A stretch of DNA of 64,000 bases from an uncultured Gammaproteobacteria bacterium (GCA_963771515.1 CAVYTG010000001.1:105820-169819), one strand, 5' to 3'. Counted from the stretch's first letter, positions 17,629 to 26,908 are shown. Program-made: numbers and translations. Notes: generated from the sequence alone by a model not told the origin.

Positions 17629-18825
17629 ATGAATTTATCCAACTATGATGTAGATGAAAAAAGAGGTTTTTTACCTTCTTATAATCCATTAAGAAAATTA
17701 CCCGACAAATATAAAGCTTGGGATGAATGTATAAAGCATTTACCTAAATATTTAATATCGGGGCATGTAAGAAAACATTTAGATTTATTGCCGACTTTAT
17801 CGATAGAAGAACTCGATGATGAGCCTAAGCTAAACAGAGCTATGTTGCTTCTTTCATATTTTGGTCATGCTTATGTTTGGGGAGAAAATAAGGCAGCCGA
17901 TACCATTCCTGCGAATATTGCAAAACCTTGGGTTGCTGTCTCAGAAAAATTAGGTCGTCCGCCTGTATTATCTTATGCTTCTCACGCGCTAAATAATTGG
18001 TATCTTGAAGATAACGAAAAACCTATTGAGCTAGGAAATATTGTGAGAATGCACAATTTTGAAGGGGGATTTGATGAAGATTGGTTTGTATTAATTCATA
18101 TTGCAATAGAAGGCGTTGCTCCGCCAGCGATTAAGGCAATTATTAATTTACAAGACCATGTTAAAACGTCTGATCCGAAATCTGCTTTAGCGAGTTTGAC
18201 AATTTTATCTGAGCAGATTGATAAAATAGTGAAAATCCTTAAAAGAATGCCAGAGAACTGTGACCCTTATATATATTACCATCGCGTTAGAAGGTTTATT
18301 TTTGGGTGGATGGGCAACCCTGTCATTCCTGAAGGTGTTTACTACGATGGTGTCGAAAAATGGAATGGAAAACCTCAACAATTTAGAGGAGAAACAGGGG
18401 CTCAAAGCTCAATTATTCCATGTCTTGATGCTGGGCTTGGTTTAGAGTTTGATCCTAATAGCCCTTTATATAAGCACTTAATAGAATTAAGAGATTACAT
18501 GCCTCCTTTACATCGACAGCTTGTTATTGACCTGGAAAAAGCAGAGAAACAGAACTCTGTTAGGGTATTTATCAAAAATAATGCAAAAAATTATCCGAAA
18601 CTTATTGACCTTTACAATGAATGTTTGGAAGGCATTTATCAGTTTAGGCTACAACATTTAAATTTTGCAAAAGCCTATATAAACATTCAAGCAGAAAGAG
18701 CTTCTAGCCCTGTCAATGTTGGAACAGGGGGCACCCCCTTTATAAAATATCTTGGGGATCATTGTGATGAAGTATTAAAACAAAAATTGACCCATGTTCA
18801 TCAAGATGAATTAGTTCAAGCCTGA
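17629..18825 (+). CDS. Indoleamine 2,3-dioxygenase (IDO)-family heme dioxygenase homologue
   Basis: Collinear with human IDO1 from memory: YDVDEKRGFLPSYNPLRKLPDKYKAWDECIKHLPKYL against [42 protein letters not shown] against MAYVWG; RGETGAQSSIIPCLDAGLG against AGGSAGQSSVFQCFDVLLG; LRDYMPPLHRQ against MRRYMPPAHRN; GTGGTPFIKYL against GTGGTDLMNFL. Confidence 0.75.
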   Translation: MNLSNYDVDEKRGFLPSYNPLRKLPDKYKAWDECIKHLPKYLISGHVRKHLDLLPTLSIEELDDEPKLNRAMLLLSYFGHAYVWGENKAADTIPANIAKPWVAVSEKLGRPPVLSYASHALNNWYLEDNEKPIELGNIVRMHNFEGGFDEDWFVLIHIAIEGVAPPAIKAIINLQDHVKTSDPKSALASLTILSEQIDKIVKILKRMPENCDPYIYYHRVRRFIFGWMGNPVIPEGVYYDGVEKWNGKPQQFRGETGAQSSIIPCLDAGLGLEFDPNSPLYKHLIELRDYMPPLHRQLVIDLEKAEKQNSVRVFIKNNAKNYPKLIDLYNECLEGIYQFRLQHLNFAKAYINIQAERASSPVNVGTGGTPFIKYLGDHCDEVLKQKLTHVHQDELVQA

Positions 18826-18872
18826 TTTGGCGTACCCTAATCTAAAATTGCTTATAGGCTCACAAATAATTT

Positions 18873-19850
18873 TTGAGGTTTATGATGGACCACTATCGTT
18901 CTTTTATTGATACCTGGGATAACTATGCCACGGTAAGATCTAGACCAAGACGGCTAATAGATGCTAACCATGTTCATGAAGTTTATCATTATCCCATTTC
19001 TCGAATGCCTGTTGCTGTGCATCCCATTGTTGCTGCAAAAGGAGATTCTTTTTTAAAGAAAATGCTTGCTCAAGCCTGTGTTTTTTACTTGAAATCGATT
19101 GCAAGTCTTGAAACAGAAGTCATAAATAAAGCTGCTTTAACACTCATCAATGGAAATTTATCTCATATAATACCTGAGCCTTTAAAGCTAGACCTACTCA
19201 GCATAGTTGTAGATGAAGCCTATCATGCGCATGTCGCCAGAGATTATAGTTTGCAGTTAAAAAATTTATTAGATTTACCTGATGTTTATGCAAATATTTA
19301 TTCAGATTTAGGCCATTCAATCACCAAGCATATGAGTGATTTAAAGCCTGACTGTCAAGATGACTTTCTGGTCATAGCCGTATGTATAGGGGAACACACT
19401 TTAACCCCAGAAATAGCGAGTATGGGGCGCGAGGAAAATGTTGCTTCAAGTTTTACTGGCCTGATGAAAGACCATGTTACAGATGAAGGTCGTCATGCAA
19501 CCTTATTTAAGCATGTTCTGAAATTAGTTTGGGCAAACTTAACTCTGATAAAAAAGCAATCTATTTCAAAAGTATTACCTCATTTTGTCAAAGAATATCT
19601 ATCTGAAAGCTATGCTAAAAAATTTATAAAAGATTTGCTCTTACACGAAAAAATCAGTGAACAAGAGGTCGATAAAATCATGAAAGAAAGTTTTCATCAA
19701 TGTTACTTAGGCGAAAACAATAGTTCTTTCAGAAATATTTGTAAATTGTTTCAGTCTTCAAGTTTATTGGATGACCCTTTATTGGTATCAGAATTTCAAA
19801 AAAATCGTATAGACATAGGAATTGAGAAGTGCGTAGACTCAACTTTATAG
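18873..19850 (+). CDS. Ferritin-like diiron-carboxylate oxygenase candidate (AurF/CmlI-like N-oxygenase or heme-oxygenase-like diiron oxidase)
   Basis: Two E-x(~30)-[DE]ExxH pairs: ...LETE...(x33)...DEAYHAH and ...GEHTL...(x28)...DEGRHAT. 325 aa, no TM. Assignment rests on motif spacing only. Confidence 0.35.
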   Translation: MRFMMDHYRSFIDTWDNYATVRSRPRRLIDANHVHEVYHYPISRMPVAVHPIVAAKGDSFLKKMLAQACVFYLKSIASLETEVINKAALTLINGNLSHIIPEPLKLDLLSIVVDEAYHAHVARDYSLQLKNLLDLPDVYANIYSDLGHSITKHMSDLKPDCQDDFLVIAVCIGEHTLTPEIASMGREENVASSFTGLMKDHVTDEGRHATLFKHVLKLVWANLTLIKKQSISKVLPHFVKEYLSESYAKKFIKDLLLHEKISEQEVDKIMKESFHQCYLGENNSSFRNICKLFQSSSLLDDPLLVSEFQKNRIDIGIEKCVDSTL

Positions 19851-22800
19851 TCAGAGGAGAATCAAATTTTACGCTTAGGTGTATCCAGGCGCTCTCTGAT
19901 CTCGGTCATAATATATTATGCCTTGAAACCGAAAATGTAAAAATTCTAGAATTTGCATCTAAAGAAAACATAGATAGTGTTCAGCCTAGTGAGCAATCAA
20001 AAACCCAGGATACAAACAGTATCTATGTTTCAATAGATGCTCTCGGCGACCCTTCTCATCCTTTAAATAATATAGCGTGTCATATTCGACTACATAGGGT
20101 TGAACCTGAAGATAATAAAAATAAAAGCTACTGGAGCGTTGACTTAAAAAATAATGTTTATTTAAAACAACCTCCCCAAGATCTGCTCGCGGATGAAGAT
20201 GAGCTTTTAACAAATTTAGAGTTTATCATCAATCAATTTGCCAGATTAGGACTTCATGATCCTGGTCTAAAAGAAGCAAGTTCAAATAACTTTGTCACAG
20301 AAATCCCTATTGCTTCAGAGCTTGATTATAGATATATATTAGGAGGATTATTATTTTTTATTTCTCTATTTAAAAAAGAAGAACTCATAGAATTAACCCT
20401 TCCTGTCAATGATATGGGTTTCTTCTATCCAGATTTCCAAGGAAAACTTCAAAAAGCTGAAAAGTATGAGATTAATTTAAGCCAAGTACACACCCCTTCT
20501 CATTTGCTTTCAGTCGTAGATCAAACGCTCCAGGATTTTAAAGGAAATCATAATCTTTTTTGTCTCTCCAGTTGCCTATACTTTAAATTCGATGTTGAGG
20601 ATACCCAAAAATTGGGTTTATATCTCTCAACATTTAATAAACTATTTTTATTACATAAGGGGCAAAAAAAACAAGACATACAGAATCTTATCCGCCTTTT
20701 CAGGCTGATTTATGAGGCTATTTCAAGTGTGCAAAACCTAGATTGCTCGCTTAATGATCTCAACTTAGTTGATTTGGATACCATAAAATTTTTAAGTCAA
20801 ATAGGTGGCTTTACTCACTACCACCCGCCCCAAGCAGAAGAAACAATTATTTCTGCTATTTCAAAAAACATTAAAAATTATCCTGATCACATTGCAATTG
20901 AATATAGTGATCAGTCATTAACCTACGAAGCGCTGGGGAAGCTTTCTGTCCATTTATCTAAGCAAATTTCAAAAAAACTAGGTCCCGTAAAATCTGCAAA
21001 GATTATTCTTTGTGTTGAAAGAGGAATTAATCTGGTTGCTACCATTTTAGCAATCTGGCGCTTAGGACATGCGTATGTTCCGGTTGCTTTAGATTTCCCA
21101 GAAGAAAGAATGCTTGAAATTATTCAGCAATTAAACGAACCTCTTATAATTACTGATCATAATCGAGCTGATTTTTTTACACACTATCCTAATTTTATCA
21201 ATTTATCTACGTTAGCATTAGAAAAAAGGAATGATCTTGATTTGAGCCAAGAAGAGCTCATGACAGGAATCTCTGGTGATGATCTTGCTTATATCATCTA
21301 TACCTCTGGTTCTACAGGGGCTCCCAAAGGCGTTATGATGCATCATAAAGGTGCACTTAACATGATACAATGGACTGTAGAAAACTACCCCATTACTTCA
21401 AAGGATAAAGTGATACAAATGGCATCCTTTGCTTTTGATTTTTCAGTCTGGGAAATGATGTCGGCTCTTACCTCAGCTGCTTGCTTGGTTCTCACAGAAG
21501 AGAAAAAATATAGAGATCCAAGGTATTTAGTCAATCTAATAAGAGAAAAACAAATTACGATTCTTGGATGTGTGACTTCTTTGTTTCGATATCTGTTAGA
21601 TGAACCTGGATTCTCTCAATGCACTAGCTTAAAACGAATAGTAGTCGGTGCTGAACCTTTAACTCTTTCTATAAAAAATAAACTGTACGAAATTCACCCT
21701 CATGTCACCTTATATCATGGTTATGGACCAACTGAAACAGCGATAACATCTGTTCATTGGGAATGTCCAAATACTTATAACCATTTAGATATACCGATTG
21801 GAAAGCCCATAGCGAACACCAAAGTTGCTGTAGTCTCTGAATCTCTTAAAATACTACCACCAGGGTTGCCTGGTGAGCTCCTAATTGGTGGCATTGGTGT
21901 AGGGCGAGGGTATCTCAATCAAAGTGATCTTACAAACCAAAAATTTATTCATTTAAATATCTTAGGAGATACCGATTTATTTTATAGAACGGGTGATATC
22001 GTTCGGTGGAGTGGCAATCATTTAATTTTTGTTGGTCGTAAAGATCAAATGATAAAGTTACATGGCCTGCGCATAGAGTTAGAGGAAATTGAAAAGGCGA
22101 TGGAATCTCTAGCTTATATCAAGGCAGCTGCTGTTAAATTTCATAAAAATGAAAAACGAGCTTCGCTTATCGGATATTTTATTGTAGAACCGTCCCAACT
22201 GACTAAAAATGAAAATTTAACCCAAAAGCATTTAAATTTATGGAAAAATTTTTATGATGATTCGTACAAAGATTCACACAATCGACATGAAACAACATTT
22301 AATACCGTTGGTTGGAAAAGCACTTTTACAAATCAGGAATATTCCTCTGATTTGATGAAAGAATGGAGGGATGAAATTGTAGAATTAATCCTAGGATACA
22401 ACCCTAATAACGTTCTTGAAATTGGTTGCGGAACAGGTCTTATTTACCATGCTCTAAAAGGAAAAATCAAAAAATATATTGGAATAGATTATGCTCAAGT
22501 CATTATTGACAGAATGCTGAGCACAGAAGCTGCTGAGATAGAATTAGGAAAAAGCAACTTTTTCCACTGCTCCGCCAATAAGATAGAAAAAATTAAGCCT
22601 CTTTTGGATAATGCGCTCCCCATTGACTGTGTCGTGATTAATTCTGTTGTCCAGTATTTCCCTAGCACTGAGTTTCTAGAAAACGTCTTAGATAAGATTA
22701 TAAAATACATAAATCCTAACTATATTGTTTTAGGAGACATATTGGATTTTAGAACAAACAAACTTTTTTATGAAAAAGAATATTCTGTTAAGAAAGAACT

Positions 22801-25800
22801 GGGGCATATTTCCCTTTCAAAAACAGAGTTTATACAAAATCGCTTAAAGACAGAAAAAGAACTTTTTATTCATCCAGTTTTTTTCATAGACTTTGCTAAA
22901 AAAAATCGTGCACTACAATCCATTGGTCTATTTCCTAAAATGGGTGTTGGAAGTACCGAGATGAATCAATTCAGATATAATGTTGTACTATCCACTCAAC
23001 ATGGAAGCAAGATAAAAGCAAATTCTATACTATGCAAAAATCCTCTGGAAATAAAAAAGCAAATTCAAACCCAAGCACTCATTAAAACGGATAACCATTG
23101 GCTAAATTGTACTGATGGTTCTCATCATACCAGGCGTTTACCTAAAGAAATACAGCTTGAAATGAAACAAAGTGGTCTAGATGTAAATATTGTACTTGAC
23201 CCGTTAACGCCAGAATATCTCTATATCATTAAAGATGAAAATTTTGGTCACTTGCAAAGTCTAGATTCACAAAATCTACGCTCAGAAGGGAAAAATGTTA
23301 TTCACTATTCCAATGTAACTTCTCTATTAAAAGAAGAAGTAATCTCAAAAGTAATATTCGAAGACTTACAAAAAAAATTACCACACTATATGATTCCAAG
23401 CCTTTTTAAACAGCTTGAAGTATTTCCGATGACCTCGAGTGGTAAAGTTGACAAGAAGCGTTTACCTACCATTATAGAACTTGAAGCTGCGCTATCTGAT
23501 AATCCAGAAGAAGCAAAATTACAAAAAATTCTTTCAGAAGCCATCGGAATAAAATCAATAGGAATAGATGAAAATTTCTTCTCTTCAGGTGGAAATTCCT
23601 TATCAGCGATTAATGCAGTGTACAAAATTACAGAAAATTTTGACGTGGATTTCTTTGTTAAAGATTTATTCGAATTTGATTCTGCAAAAAAAGTTGCTCA
23701 ATTTATAAAAGATAATAGAAAAAATAAAGTAACCAAAATAAAAAAGCAGCCCTTTGAGCGTTATTCTGATTTTCTTTTAACCCATGCACAAAATAGGTTG
23801 TGGTTCCTACATAAACTTGATGAGCAAAAATCTAGCGCATATAACGTACCTCTGTTAATAAAATTAAACGGACATCTAAATATTAAAAAGCTTAAGGATT
23901 CCATCAATACACTTATTTCAAAACATGATGCTTTAAGATTAATCTTTATTGATAAAAAAGGAATAGCATTCCAGAAAATTTTAGAGAAATATGAGATTGA
24001 GCTGCCTGTTGTCGACTTTCCTTCCCATCAAGCTACTTTAAAAGGAATCAACGATGTCATTAATCAGCCTTTTAAGTTAGATACAACCCCCCCCATTAGG
24101 TTTACTATATTCACAAAGAATAATTTAGCCCAATACCTGGTTATTGTAATACATAATATCATAACAGACGGTTGGTCTATGTCGTTACTTATTGATCAGC
24201 TTTATAAAATCTATAACGACCAGGAGGAAGCTTTTCAAGCTCATAATCCTTTAGGATTTATACAAGAATATTTACCATTTACTTCCAATAAACCCAAAAG
24301 CTATTACTTAGAAGGCATAAATTACTGGAAAGAATACTTAAATAATTTTGTGGAATTAAACTTCCCTTATCCTTATAAAAACGTAAAAAAAGTAGAAAAT
24401 CATTTAGAGTCAAAAAGGGAAACTTTATCAGGCGAAACGATAAGTAATATATATCAGGTAGCAAGCCATTATAACGTTTCACCTTTTGCCATTATTAAAT
24501 CCACTTTTGCTGTTTTGCTGAATAAATACACGCAACAAGAAGACATTGTTTTTGGTTCAGTATTGTCAAATAGGGAGCTACAGTCTTTAAAAGATGTTAT
24601 TGGATTTATGGTGAATACAGTCGTATTTCGGTATAAACTTGACGAAGCCACGATCTTTAAAGATTTAATAGTTCAGGCTCAAAACTCTACGAGGTTGGCA
24701 TATAGCTATCAAGATATTCCCTTTGAAGATGTTGTTAAACAAGTGACAAAATCTCGTTGCTTGAACAAAACCCCAATTTTTCAATTTATGTTTATTTCAC
24801 AAGACGTGAGTGAGATAAACACCCTGAAGCTTGGAGAATGCTACTGTAAAGTAGTGCCATCAGCGCCAAATCAAGCAATGTTTGCAATGACTTTCAATTA
24901 TGTTCTTACAAAAAAGGACCTAAAGGTTGATATTTACTATGATGCTTCTCTTTTCTCTCCGACTTCAATTGACCATTTTTTAGCAAATTTTTTCCATTTA
25001 CTAAAAACATTGTTAAATAACCCCTTGGGGCTGATCGAAAAGGTTTCTATCGTTTCTGAACATGAAAGGAACTTGCTATTAACTCAGTATAATCCTAAGC
25101 CTGATAGAAATCTCGTCAATAAATTAGTTTACCCCTTGTTTCATGAAGCTGCGTATGAAAATTTAGATAGAATAGCCTGTTTAGATGAAACAGGCAGTAC
25201 TACGTACAAAGCGCTATTATCCCAGGTTAATAAGTTTTCTAATATTCTTTCTGTCCCAACAAATGTTGCTACGGCAGCCATTATTTCGACTCCTGGTATC
25301 TTATCAACCGCGCTTGCATTGGCTTGCTTAAAATGTGGTATTACTATTGTTTTTATAGACCCAAGTCTACCTGCTAGCCGAATAGAATATATGCTTAAAG
25401 CATCCAAAACCGATATTTTATTTTCTCATGAATTAAATAATGCTATAACGATTCCAAAAAACATTCAGTGTTACCATTTTGCTCACGATGAAACAGTAGC
25501 AAGTACAGAAAAAGGCTTTAATATTGTAAAGGAGGTTACACCTGATCATTGCGCATACATTGTGTTTACTTCTGGAACAACAGGAGCGCCAAAAGCTGTA
25601 CAAGTGTTACAGCGTAATCTTGCTAATGCAATTTTGCATTTTAGAAAAGTACTTAATATGGGCCAACTTGATAAAGTATTAAGTATGACACGCCCCAGTT
25701 TCGATATTTTTTATTTAGAGATGCTCCTTCCCATTATATCAGGGTCTAGTGTTCAATTTATGCACCCAGATTTGAGTATTGACCCATCTGAAATCATTAA

Positions 25801-26893
25801 AAATATAAGTAACTTTGAACCCACCCTCATTCAAGCAACGCCCTCTAGATGGGAGTTAATACGCGCTGAATATATTTCGAAAGAAAAAAACTTTCATGTT
25901 CCTAAAATACTAACTGGTGGGGAACCTCTTTCACATCAACTGCTAACATTTTTATACAGTCAATCTGATCTATTGCTGAATGTTTATGGTCCCAGTGAAA
26001 CCACAATCTGGTCAACTGAATATAAATTCGGTAATGTGAGTCAAATTATATCCATAGGCAAACCTATATCAAATACAGAATGTTATATTTTAGATAAACA
26101 CAAGAACATAATACCAATAAATGCGATAGGGGAGCTATATATCGGTGGAGAAGGCGTAACCAAAGGCTATCTGAATGACACTTTAAAAAATAAAGCAGCT
26201 TTTTTCAACATAAGATTAGACAATGAAAATAAATATTTATATAAAACAGGAGATTTAGCTTCTTGGGATGAAGAAGGGAATTTACTATTTCATGGAAGAG
26301 TAGATAAGCAGATAAAAATAAGAGGATACCGTATTGAACCCGGTGAAATACTATTTTATTTAAAAAAATATCCAAGCGTTGAACATGCCCATGTTTTATT
26401 TCAAAAAGATCAGTCAACCTTGTGTGCCTTTATTAAGGTAAAAAAGAGCTATGAAGATCAATTCAATACTTCACAACTGAATGCTTTTTTGAAGCAAGAA
26501 TTACCCGAATATATGATTCCTTCCCATTATTATATCGTTGAAAATATACCGTTAAGTGTTAATGGAAAGGTAGACGAATTTGCTTTGAATAACTTGAGAG
26601 AAAAACAGTCTTATCAAGAGGTAAAAAATATTAAATTACCTTCCAATGATTTACAAAGCAAGCTTTGTACGATTTGGCAAAACGCTTTAAATATAGATGA
26701 ATTTAGCGTAGACAGCAGCTTCTATGAATTAGGAGGACATTCTCTTTTGGCGCCCAAGATTGTCTGGGAAATTAATGCGATATTTGGCTGTGATTTAACC
26801 ATAAGAAACTTTATTACGAACAATACCATAGAAAAATTGGCCATTTTTATAAAAGATAGGCAGGTTACTATGGTTGCCTCTGAAGTAGATTAA
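19829..26893 (+). CDS. Bimodular nonribosomal peptide synthetase: unknown N-terminal ~330-aa region, then A (with embedded N-methyltransferase), T, C (HNxxxDG), A, T; no TE/R domain
   Basis: Module 1 A motifs: LTYEALG, LAYIIYTSGSTGAPKGV, FDFSVWE, YGPTETAI, GELLIGGIGVGRGYLN, YRTGDIVRW, GRKDQMIKLHGLRIELEEIE; MT insert VLEIGCGTGL; then LPHYMIPS and SGKVDKKRLP. T1 is FFSSGGNSLSAI. C has HAQNRLWFL and IHNIITDGWS. Module 2 A motifs: YIVFTSGTTGAPKAV, NVYGPSETTI, GELYIGGEGVTKGYLN, YKTGDLASW, GRVDKQIKIRGYRIEPGEI, NGKVDEFAL. T2 is LGGHSLLAPKI. Its start overlaps the upstream gene by 22 nt. Confidence 0.9.
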   Translation: MRRLNFIVRGESNFTLRCIQALSDLGHNILCLETENVKILEFASKENIDSVQPSEQSKTQDTNSIYVSIDALGDPSHPLNNIACHIRLHRVEPEDNKNKSYWSVDLKNNVYLKQPPQDLLADEDELLTNLEFIINQFARLGLHDPGLKEASSNNFVTEIPIASELDYRYILGGLLFFISLFKKEELIELTLPVNDMGFFYPDFQGKLQKAEKYEINLSQVHTPSHLLSVVDQTLQDFKGNHNLFCLSSCLYFKFDVEDTQKLGLYLSTFNKLFLLHKGQKKQDIQNLIRLFRLIYEAISSVQNLDCSLNDLNLVDLDTIKFLSQIGGFTHYHPPQAEETIISAISKNIKNYPDHIAIEYSDQSLTYEALGKLSVHLSKQISKKLGPVKSAKIILCVERGINLVATILAIWRLGHAYVPVALDFPEERMLEIIQQLNEPLIITDHNRADFFTHYPNFINLSTLALEKRNDLDLSQEELMTGISGDDLAYIIYTSGSTGAPKGVMMHHKGALNMIQWTVENYPITSKDKVIQMASFAFDFSVWEMMSALTSAACLVLTEEKKYRDPRYLVNLIREKQITILGCVTSLFRYLLDEPGFSQCTSLKRIVVGAEPLTLSIKNKLYEIHPHVTLYHGYGPTETAITSVHWECPNTYNHLDIPIGKPIANTKVAVVSESLKILPPGLPGELLIGGIGVGRGYLNQSDLTNQKFIHLNILGDTDLFYRTGDIVRWSGNHLIFVGRKDQMIKLHGLRIELEEIEKAMESLAYIKAAAVKFHKNEKRASLIGYFIVEPSQLTKNENLTQKHLNLWKNFYDDSYKDSHNRHETTFNTVGWKSTFTNQEYSSDLMKEWRDEIVELILGYNPNNVLEIGCGTGLIYHALKGKIKKYIGIDYAQVIIDRMLSTEAAEIELGKSNFFHCSANKIEKIKPLLDNALPIDCVVINSVVQYFPSTEFLENVLDKIIKYINPNYIVLGDILDFRTNKLFYEKEYSVKKELGHISLSKTEFIQNRLKTEKELFIHPVFFIDFAKKNRALQSIGLFPKMGVGSTEMNQFRYNVVLSTQHGSKIKANSILCKNPLEIKKQIQTQALIKTDNHWLNCTDGSHHTRRLPKEIQLEMKQSGLDVNIVLDPLTPEYLYIIKDENFGHLQSLDSQNLRSEGKNVIHYSNVTSLLKEEVISKVIFEDLQKKLPHYMIPSLFKQLEVFPMTSSGKVDKKRLPTIIELEAALSDNPEEAKLQKILSEAIGIKSIGIDENFFSSGGNSLSAINAVYKITENFDVDFFVKDLFEFDSAKKVAQFIKDNRKNKVTKIKKQPFERYSDFLLTHAQNRLWFLHKLDEQKSSAYNVPLLIKLNGHLNIKKLKDSINTLISKHDALRLIFIDKKGIAFQKILEKYEIELPVVDFPSHQATLKGINDVINQPFKLDTTPPIRFTIFTKNNLAQYLVIVIHNIITDGWSMSLLIDQLYKIYNDQEEAFQAHNPLGFIQEYLPFTSNKPKSYYLEGINYWKEYLNNFVELNFPYPYKNVKKVENHLESKRETLSGETISNIYQVASHYNVSPFAIIKSTFAVLLNKYTQQEDIVFGSVLSNRELQSLKDVIGFMVNTVVFRYKLDEATIFKDLIVQAQNSTRLAYSYQDIPFEDVVKQVTKSRCLNKTPIFQFMFISQDVSEINTLKLGECYCKVVPSAPNQAMFAMTFNYVLTKKDLKVDIYYDASLFSPTSIDHFLANFFHLLKTLLNNPLGLIEKVSIVSEHERNLLLTQYNPKPDRNLVNKLVYPLFHEAAYENLDRIACLDETGSTTYKALLSQVNKFSNILSVPTNVATAAIISTPGILSTALALACLKCGITIVFIDPSLPASRIEYMLKASKTDILFSHELNNAITIPKNIQCYHFAHDETVASTEKGFNIVKEVTPDHCAYIVFTSGTTGAPKAVQVLQRNLANAILHFRKVLNMGQLDKVLSMTRPSFDIFYLEMLLPIISGSSVQFMHPDLSIDPSEIIKNISNFEPTLIQATPSRWELIRAEYISKEKNFHVPKILTGGEPLSHQLLTFLYSQSDLLLNVYGPSETTIWSTEYKFGNVSQIISIGKPISNTECYILDKHKNIIPINAIGELYIGGEGVTKGYLNDTLKNKAAFFNIRLDNENKYLYKTGDLASWDEEGNLLFHGRVDKQIKIRGYRIEPGEILFYLKKYPSVEHAHVLFQKDQSTLCAFIKVKKSYEDQFNTSQLNAFLKQELPEYMIPSHYYIVENIPLSVNGKVDEFALNNLREKQSYQEVKNIKLPSNDLQSKLCTIWQNALNIDEFSVDSSFYELGGHSLLAPKIVWEINAIFGCDLTIRNFITNNTIEKLAIFIKDRQVTMVASEVD

Positions 26894-26908
26894 TAATATT
26901 GGTGAAGT

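Follow-up and report, generated by a model that had tools for sequence, protein, structure and literature searches.

A divergent dimodular nonribosomal peptide synthetase with an orphan N-terminal region on a low-GC island of an uncultured gammaproteobacterium

Introduction

What is a nonribosomal peptide synthetase (NRPS) that carries several hundred residues without a detectable relative ahead of its first adenylation domain, and how could it release its product when it ends on a carrier protein? The question is raised by an open reading frame (ORF) in a 64,000-nucleotide (nt) stretch of DNA from an uncultured Gammaproteobacteria bacterium (GCA_963771515.1, CAVYTG010000001.1:105820-169819); this whole stretch is called the window here, and positions are counted from its first letter. 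The ORF lies on the + strand at 19829..26893, begins with GTG and encodes an NRPS of 2354 amino acids (aa). An earlier note on this DNA, made from the sequence alone, had described an unexplained N-terminus of about 330 residues, a first adenylation domain interrupted by a methyltransferase, and the absence of any thioesterase or reductase at the end. In the analysis reported here we conclude that, taken as a whole, the ORF is best explained as an intact and probably functional dimodular NRPS, a reading that we hold to be reasonably probable. The enzyme is a strongly divergent one, its assembly-line logic is already known, and it does not represent a new kind of system.

Results

Reading frame and domain order

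Pfam matches and core motifs together give the domain order [N-terminal region 1-335]–A1(a1-a8)–M–A1(a9-a10)–T1–C–A2–T2, where A, M, T and C denote adenylation, methyltransferase, carrier and condensation domains. In Pfam, AMP-binding starts at residue 346 and is followed by a methyltransferase (844-1004), Condensation (1316-1751), AMP-binding_C (2179-2247) and PP-binding (2278-2340). AMP-binding is matched in two copies (E 1.6e-135) and PP-binding in two stretches (E 3.3e-23), while the NCBIfam model TIGR01733 scores 652 bits against a cut-off of 317 bits. Our check of the A-domain core motifs covered a1 and a3-a10, with a2 outside the search. Motifs a3, a5, a6, a7, a8, a9 and a10 were found by pattern, as was a1 in A1 only; for a4 the pattern search succeeded in A1, and reading by eye gave FDIF in A2. 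All the A, T and M core motifs searched for are intact.

An independent gene call, made for a second assembly (L001), likewise starts at the GTG at 19829, and an in-frame stop lies two codons 5' of this GTG. Later possible starts occur at codons 196, 226, 262, 301 and 316, none of them just ahead of the A domain. The GTG overlaps the 3' end of the preceding AurF-like gene by 22 nt, the other gaps in the operon measuring 2-47 nt. The protein has an identical sequence in the second (SRA) assembly and is a singleton in clustering at 90% identity; its closest full-length relatives are just 27-37% identical to it.

Module 1: an adenylation domain with an embedded N-methyltransferase

The first part of A1 (residues 336-786; 20834..22186, + strand), matched by Pfam AMP-binding and TIGR01733, carries a1 (LTYEAL) at residue 364, a3 (TSGSTGAPK) at 492, a5 (YGPTE) at 632, a7 (YRTGD) at 719 and a8 (GRKDQMIKLHG) at 736. 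The earlier note had placed the first core motif about 360 codons into the gene and an S-adenosylmethionine (SAM)-dependent methyltransferase between a8 and a9, and both placements agree with what we found, since VLEIGCGTG at 862 stands between a8 at 736 and a9 at 1184. The insert itself extends over residues ~787-1165 (~379 aa; 22187..23323, +), with the A/M boundary at LIGYFIV (780). It is followed by the C-terminal part of A1 (23324..23473, +), identified by motifs and alignment, with a9 (LPHYMIP) at 1184 and a10 (SGKVD), whose Lys1206 aligns with Lys517 of 1AMU. Carrier T1 (Pfam PP-binding; 23516..23704, +, boundaries approximate) has its serine, Ser1257, in GGNSL (1254).

Among solved structures the insert is closest to TioS(A4-M-A4) (5WMM, E 7e-31), and the alignment begins at the insert's first residue. 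M domains of the type-I backbone N-methylating class that lie between a8 and a9 are characterised by six motifs and measure 390±21 aa (Lundy et al., PMC8341866). All six are present here in order: GWKS at 828, VLEIGCGTG at 862-870, KYIGIDYA at 882, DCVVINSVVQYFPSTEFL at 933-950, EKELFIHPVFF at 1009 and EMNQFRY at 1044; the stretch DCVVINSVVQYF begins at NRPS residue 933. None of the motif sets of O- or S-methylating domains fits the insert. With the six motifs and the size in agreement, the N-methylation reading therefore rests on criteria of membership and not on mere resemblance, and the assignment of the insert to the backbone N-methylating type, as the earlier note had proposed from its likeness to N-methylating modules, is supported by its sequence.

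We extracted the specificity codes of both A domains by alignment to a fragment of GrsA-PheA whose sequence was checked by internal consistency only: DAWTIAAIC appears in it at the offsets where it should, and the alignment to 1AMU gave independent confirmation of Lys517. The A1 code reads DFWGVGGITK. By sequence, the nearest relatives of A1 are serine-type domains (DVWHxSLxDK), but their polar His278 and Asp331 are replaced; positions 278, 301 and 322 are all Gly, and Asp235 and Lys517 are present. Judged from these residues, the pocket is a hydrophobic and enlarged one. A literature search with the A1 and A2 code strings found neither.

Module 2: a variant condensation domain, a predicted glycine module and no release domain

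The only C domain spans residues 1316-1751 (23774..25081, +; Pfam Condensation, E 2.8e-78), has an LCL-like start (AQNRLWFL) and normal length, and finds its relatives in the Protein Data Bank (PDB) in 5U89, 2JGP and 6P1J. Its active-site motif at residues 1442-1448 (window 24152-24172) is HNIITDG and not HHxxxDG, a feature that the earlier note had missed. Among 141 C domains sampled from relatives, HH occurs in 135 and HN in this one alone. The role of the second His of HHxxxDG is debated; some C domains depend on it, and replacing it can leave a C domain active (PMC11546977).

A2 (residues 1766-2250; 25124..26578, +; Pfam AMP-binding and AMP-binding_C, motifs) has the code DILQLGVIWK, which equals at nine of ten positions DILQLGLIWK, the code that we take to be canonical for glycine, so that A2 is predicted to activate glycine. 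The gene then closes with carrier T2 (residues 2278-2340; Pfam PP-binding), a short tail and the stop codon (26660..26893, +). The T2 match covers positions 2-66 of the 67-position model, Ser2305 lies in GGHSL (2302), and the 49 residues that follow this serine, in line with the figure of about 50 given before, include a 14-aa tail after the match.

Pfam shows nothing after PP-binding 2278-2340, and in particular the C-terminus has no Thioesterase, NAD_binding_4 or second Condensation match. Family scans of the 64-kb window, which took in ORFs of at least 140 aa except presumed smaller genes of the atp operon, revealed no gene for a thioesterase, a reductase, a free C domain, a phosphopantetheinyl transferase (PPTase) or an MbtH protein. 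A cis release domain is common in NRPSs, not obligatory, and a docking domain would not fit into 14 residues. With no release domain in the protein and no candidate releasing enzyme in the window, release must therefore be non-enzymatic or be carried out by an enzyme encoded elsewhere; the earlier note had named release in trans, spontaneous release and release by a neighbouring enzyme.

The N-terminal region

The region ahead of A1 can be divided into residues 1-280 (19829..20668, +), an orphan stretch recognised from its open frame and its GC content by codon position and matching no Pfam family, PDB chain or homologue, and residues 281-335 (20669..20833, +), which probably retain a trace of a C domain's last helix together with the C–A linker or A-domain leader. 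Over the first 340 codons the reading frame of the gene contains no stop, the other five frames containing 19-40, and the probability of such a stop-free run by chance at 34% GC is 1.4e-11. GC content at the three codon positions is 0.48/0.28/0.27 in the N-terminal region and 0.43/0.31/0.27 in the rest of the gene. The region is thus genuine coding sequence and not a spurious extension, a doubt that the earlier note itself had raised.

Searched at E<=10 against Pfam and, with phmmer, against the PDB, residues 1-340 gave no match, and a word-indexed search of 5.8e9 proteins returned nothing. An exhaustive phmmer search of 1.84e9 representatives returned only the protein itself; it needs roughly at least 45 bits (an estimate from the cut-off of E ≤ 0.001), and very remote relatives may escape it. 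The region has no paralogue within the protein or elsewhere in the window, and no conserved catalytic motif is visible in it. AlphaFold2 gives residues 1-350 alone a mean confidence (pLDDT) of 39, and when residues 1-800 are modelled with an alignment of the A domain only, residues 335-795 reach pLDDT 85-95 and residues 1-334 stay below 50.

Both HMMER and hhalign place residues 280-337 on positions 414-469 of the C-domain profile, a match that is weak and correct in position. A global profile alignment to the C domain gives z = 5.2 with end points picked post hoc, and an alignment that is global in the profile and local in the sequence (glocal) was matched by one of 400 shuffles; hhalign gave P 0.09-0.52. 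The signal sits only in the last profile columns, and support for a C-domain end is therefore confined to residues ~281-335; by their sequence they are most likely its last helix and the C–A linker. Of the N-terminus previously described as unexplained, residues 1-280 keep that status and residues 281-335 most likely lose it. Reading by eye had suggested a C-lobe from the strings 'SYW' (residues 100-102) and 'MGFF' (196), from a helix of hydrophobic character (167-181) and from an amphipathic one at the end, and the resulting candidate, a degenerate C-lobe over residues ~95-335, was dropped as unsupported by statistics beyond 281-335.

Among the 120 best relatives, many begin with a C-lobe only (profile positions ~190-492), and in three of them (P0095, P0092 and P0046) just the last 70-100 residues of the C domain are still detectable. 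Truncated, probably inactive C* domains in loading modules have been described for ThdA (PMC7253712). P0046 (L002, 10001-16615) is an unrelated NRPS in which a Formyl_trans_N head is followed by ~180 unassigned residues, a detectable C–A linker and the first A domain, and it is a possible, less decayed analogue of the N-terminal arrangement described here. The beginning of its formyltransferase-like domain can be aligned, in register, with residues 9-58 of the present enzyme; the alignment is weak (reached by 50/2000 shuffles, p ~0.025) and may hint at an F-type head in the ancestor. Formyl_trans_N itself has no Pfam match at E<=10 and no PDB match in the N-terminal region, and an INxH-type motif is absent by reading. 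We consider the N-terminal region most likely non-catalytic.

Operon and neighbouring genes

The NRPS gene stands in a run of eight + strand genes (12225-27757). Directly upstream of it, and translationally coupled to it, is a gene for an AurF-like di-iron oxygenase (18873..19850, +; Pfam AurF, E 7.6e-11), whose product matches AurF (3CHH/2JCD) at E 1.5e-5 and CmlI (5HYG) at E 0.011 among PDB entries, contains two ExxH motifs (DEAYHAH and DEGRHA) and found only itself in the word-indexed search of 5.8e9 proteins. Preceding it is a gene for a eukaryote-like indoleamine 2,3-dioxygenase (IDO; 17629..18825, +; Pfam IDO, E 1.7e-97) that resembles mammalian IDO2 and IDO1 at E 1e-58 to 1e-53 and matches no NCBIfam model. 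A histidine of the protein aligns with the His of the IDO2 'rsyH' stretch, which we take to be the heme-proximal one, and GETGAQSS aligns with GGSAAQST of IDO2; to judge from these alignments the enzyme looks intact. On the other side, 15 nt after the NRPS stop, starts a gene for a stand-alone class-I SAM methyltransferase (26909..27757, +; Pfam Methyltransf_31/25/11, UbiE-like).

The remaining members of the run encode membrane proteins, and those from 13941 on are separated by gaps of 2-6 nt: a MatE protein (12225-13763, +; Pfam), an orphan multi-pass protein of 526 aa recognised from its hydrophobic stretches by eye (13941-15521, +), a protein of the mitochondrial-carrier family (Mito_carr; 15524-16375, +; Pfam) and a Bcr/CflA transporter of the major facilitator superfamily (MFS; 16382-17626, +; family match). 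The 526-aa protein has acidic, serine-rich termini and no Pfam or NCBIfam match at E<=10. Mito_carr is normally a eukaryotic family; here a gene of this family forms part of a bacterial NRPS operon, with gaps of 2-6 nt on either side. Between the MatE gene and that of the 526-aa orphan, at 13765-13931, lies a nested palindrome with 49-nt arms that are 90% complementary and perfect inner arms of 18 nt, of which the window holds no second copy.

Island and host

The operon occupies a block of ~16 kb (11910..28132, no strand assigned) delimited by composition, with a GC content of 32-38% against 40-46% in the flanks, between ssrS for 6S RNA (11726-11909, -; 6S RNA match) and zapA (28133-28453, -; ZapA match). 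The genes zapA, ssrS and ygfA are usually adjacent, as in E. coli, and from this normal adjacency together with the low GC it follows that the block is an inserted island, so that the NRPS operon lies on foreign DNA. No convincing direct repeats flank the island. Between ssrS and the first island gene there is a strong hairpin with a 13-bp stem (12039-12068).

A 34-nt repeat, CGTCATTGCGAGGAGCGAAGCGACGCGGCAATCC, occurs in seven copies with 0-2 mismatches (at 1235, 5216, 5342, 27970, 39278, 47745 and 63595; none expected by chance) and looks like an element of the repetitive extragenic palindrome (REP) or miniature inverted-repeat transposable element (MITE) type. Six of the copies were compared with the ORF list, and none of these falls within an ORF of 90 aa or more; the copy at 27970 is inside a nested palindrome of ~138 bp (27960-28097) at the right edge of the island.

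Elsewhere in the window, at 59395-61287, is a gene for a 630-aa protein that combines ankyrin repeats with a WD40 beta-propeller and has weak matches to models of the Dot/Icm effectors AnkH and AnkY, in keeping with life inside or in association with a host. This protein and the eukaryote-like genes of the island suggest a host-associated lifestyle for the gammaproteobacterium. Its GyrB is at most 65% identical to that of the best 80 GTDB representatives, which belong to many gammaproteobacterial orders, and among the matches listed metagenome-assembled genomes of Legionellales, Coxiellaceae and Berkiella reach 62-63%, no nearer than Vibrio and the enterics. A scan of genome contigs with PepP, for a comparison of organisms and of the empty site, and a scan of metagenome contigs with IDO returned nothing, and a literature search linking Legionella, NRPS and indoleamine found nothing relevant.

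Discussion

A pathway can be proposed in which every step stays conditional. Module 1 would load an amino acid with its alpha-amino group, as the presence of Asp235 and Lys517 indicates, and, given the hydrophobic and enlarged pocket, the substrate of A1 could perhaps be a bulky residue derived from tryptophan or kynurenine and supplied by the adjacent IDO; a kynurenine-type substrate may be a reasonable guess. The embedded M domain would N-methylate the substrate bound to T1, after which the HN variant of the C domain would join the N-methylated residue to glycine held on T2. The resulting N-methyl-X–Gly would be released without a dedicated domain, either by attack of the N-methylamine on the glycine thioester to give a 1-methyl-2,5-diketopiperazine, or hydrolytically, through an enzyme whose gene lies elsewhere. 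The flexible glycine in second position makes diketopiperazine formation plausible. The methyl group would sit on the N-terminal, attacking amine of residue 1, and because of this N-methylation does not itself favour a cis peptide bond; cyclisation is possible, yet not specially promoted by the methyl group. AurF and CmlI oxidise arylamines, and IDO would make an arylamine precursor out of tryptophan. The AurF-like oxygenase and the downstream methyltransferase might tailor the substrate or the product. Export could be the task of the efflux pumps MatE and MFS, and perhaps of the two other membrane proteins. The head of the synthetase, residues 1-280, would be either the fully decayed rest of an ancestral N-terminal domain or a lineage-specific scaffold; in the first case the ancestor may have been a truncated C* of the kind present in many loading modules, a formyltransferase-like domain such as that of P0046, or both.

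Several observations weigh against this picture. No known homologue or product anchors the NRPS experimentally. The second His of HHxxxDG is missing, so the C domain could be impaired. The A1 code DFWGVGGITK matches no code that we recall and none that we found in the literature. The genes for a PPTase and, if there is one, for a thioesterase acting in trans must lie outside the window. IDO and the AurF-like oxygenase are linked to the NRPS only by gene adjacency. Descent of the head from a C domain fares poorly in the statistics: a hidden Markov model (HMM) of 140 C domains matches the N-terminal region at E 0.034, a value equalled by 255 of 2000 shuffles (13%); an HMM built from truncated C* N-termini is equalled or beaten by 563 of 2000 (28%); Smith-Waterman z-scores to C-lobes are no better than those of reversed or decoy sequences; and the glocal z falls to 0.39 once the last 45 profile columns are left out.

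Other explanations of the locus must be set beside that of an intact dimodular synthetase. Residues 1-280 might be a new functional domain, a recruitment platform for the AurF-like oxygenase or IDO or a new catalytic domain. The X domain of glycopeptide NRPSs recruits P450s, and here ~280 residues have stayed free of stops and protein-like in a gene that is very rich in AT, with no detectable similarity to C-lobes or to anything else and with an oxygenase gene that overlaps the NRPS start by 22 nt. AurF homologues, moreover, have been proposed to act on carrier-bound substrates, in the ham and pvf systems by oxidising valine while it is tethered to the NRPS (HamC/PvfB, PMC11659414). We nevertheless regard a new domain as unlikely: it shows no conserved catalytic motif and no confident AlphaFold2 fold even alongside the A domain, a single sequence gives no conservation signal, and orphan status is to be expected equally of a decayed domain. 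A slightly smaller chance attaches to the idea that the whole NRPS is a relic, decaying or already inactive, on its foreign island. The HNIITDG motif unique among the 141 sampled C domains, the lack of a thioesterase, reductase or C-terminal domain and the orphan N-terminus would all suit a relic; a 7-kb ORF unbroken in DNA of 33% GC, intact motifs among those searched of a1-a10, M and T in both modules, the identical protein in a second assembly and tight, coupled operon spacing would not, and some C domains can do without the second His (PMC11546977).

It is also conceivable, with a probability that we set low, that T2 passes the chain on to a synthetase or free C domain elsewhere and that the NRPS is the first subunit of a longer line. 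Ending on a T domain is typical of non-terminal NRPS subunits, but the family scans of ORFs of at least 140 aa showed no other NRPS, PKS or C-domain gene in the island or the 64-kb window, the 14 residues after T2 leave no room for a C-terminal docking domain, and the island looks self-contained, with tailoring and export genes of its own. Least credible of all, and very improbable in our judgement, is an annotation artefact in which translation starts just before the A domain. This would account for the lack of homologues of the N-terminal region, and the present start is a GTG with a modest Shine-Dalgarno-like GGA/GAG upstream; yet the stop-free run of 340 codons (19-40 stops in the other frames, P ~1e-11) has codon-position GC like that of the rest of the gene, the independent gene call agrees on the start, and there is no ATG, GTG or TTG from codon 317 to the A domain. 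With the nearest alternatives, at codons 196-316, a stop-free stretch of 0.6-1 kb would have to be 'non-coding' in an operon that has no gaps otherwise. An intact and probably functional dimodular NRPS remains the reading that we prefer.

To a specialist the architecture by itself is unsurprising, given its standard assembly-line logic. What is unusual is the head of ~280 residues, which is without a relative in a set of 1.84 billion representative proteins and whose fold could not be predicted, the distance of relatives just 27-37% identical, the sole C domain with HN in place of HH, and an operon that unites a eukaryote-like IDO, a mitochondrial-carrier-family protein and an orphan AurF-like oxygenase on a low-GC island. 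If the cluster is active, it would make a small N-methylated, possibly N-oxygenated metabolite derived from tryptophan or kynurenine in a probably host-associated bacterium, which would be of relevance to natural-product discovery and to the tryptophan metabolism shared by hosts and microbes. If the N-terminal region were a docking domain for tailoring enzymes, it would offer a new type of module for NRPS engineering. One may speculate further, and in our estimation the idea is improbable, that residues 1-280 dock the AurF-like oxygenase, and perhaps IDO, on the loading module, so that cleavage of the tryptophan ring and N-oxygenation of the arylamine or alpha-amine occur on line, giving a new class of N-methyl, N-oxygenated kynurenine-type dipeptides or diketopiperazines from a host-associated gammaproteobacterium.

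Comparison with known systems

The interrupted A domain is best compared with TioS (5WMM), a family-1 interrupted A domain (A8-M(I)-A9), with which it shares the position of M between a8 and a9, the six type-I motifs and the size (~379 aa against 390±21). The alignment with TioS covers no more than the first ~264 residues of the insert, the last ~110 being divergent here, and relative to the type-I motif consensus T/F stands for (S/N)Y, A for S and H for D/A/S.

As to the whole protein, LtxA/TleA has the architecture A-M-T-C-A-T-R, where R is a reductase, and AusA the architecture A-T-C-A-T-R. Both have in common with this NRPS the A(-M)-T-C-A-T core that makes a dipeptide, and AusA is the top NCBIfam model for it, at 917 bits, far under the cut-off of 2500 bits. 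Unlike both, the present enzyme is without a terminal reductase and has an extra N-terminal region of ~335 aa, and it differs from them in both specificity codes.

With C* loading modules of the ThdA type (thermoactinoamide) it shares an extension of a few hundred residues ahead of the first A domain, of which the terminal ~55 residues resemble here the end of a C domain and the C–A linker. The C* domains of relatives are mostly matched at E 1e-15 to 1e-51, whereas residues 1-280 have no detectable likeness to a C-lobe, and there is no HHxxxDG region in the N-terminal region.

Lastly, in PvfB/PvfC and HamC/HamD too a gene of the AurF family of di-iron enzymes lies directly upstream of an NRPS gene and is translationally coupled to it. 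PvfC and HamD are single-module A-T-R enzymes, whereas the synthetase here is A(M)-T-C-A-T, and the other pvf and ham genes are missing from the cluster. The likeness to PvfB and HamC is one of gene arrangement: the oxygenase encoded here matches AurF at E 1e-5 only and stands without detectable close relatives, coupled to a synthetase of a different build.

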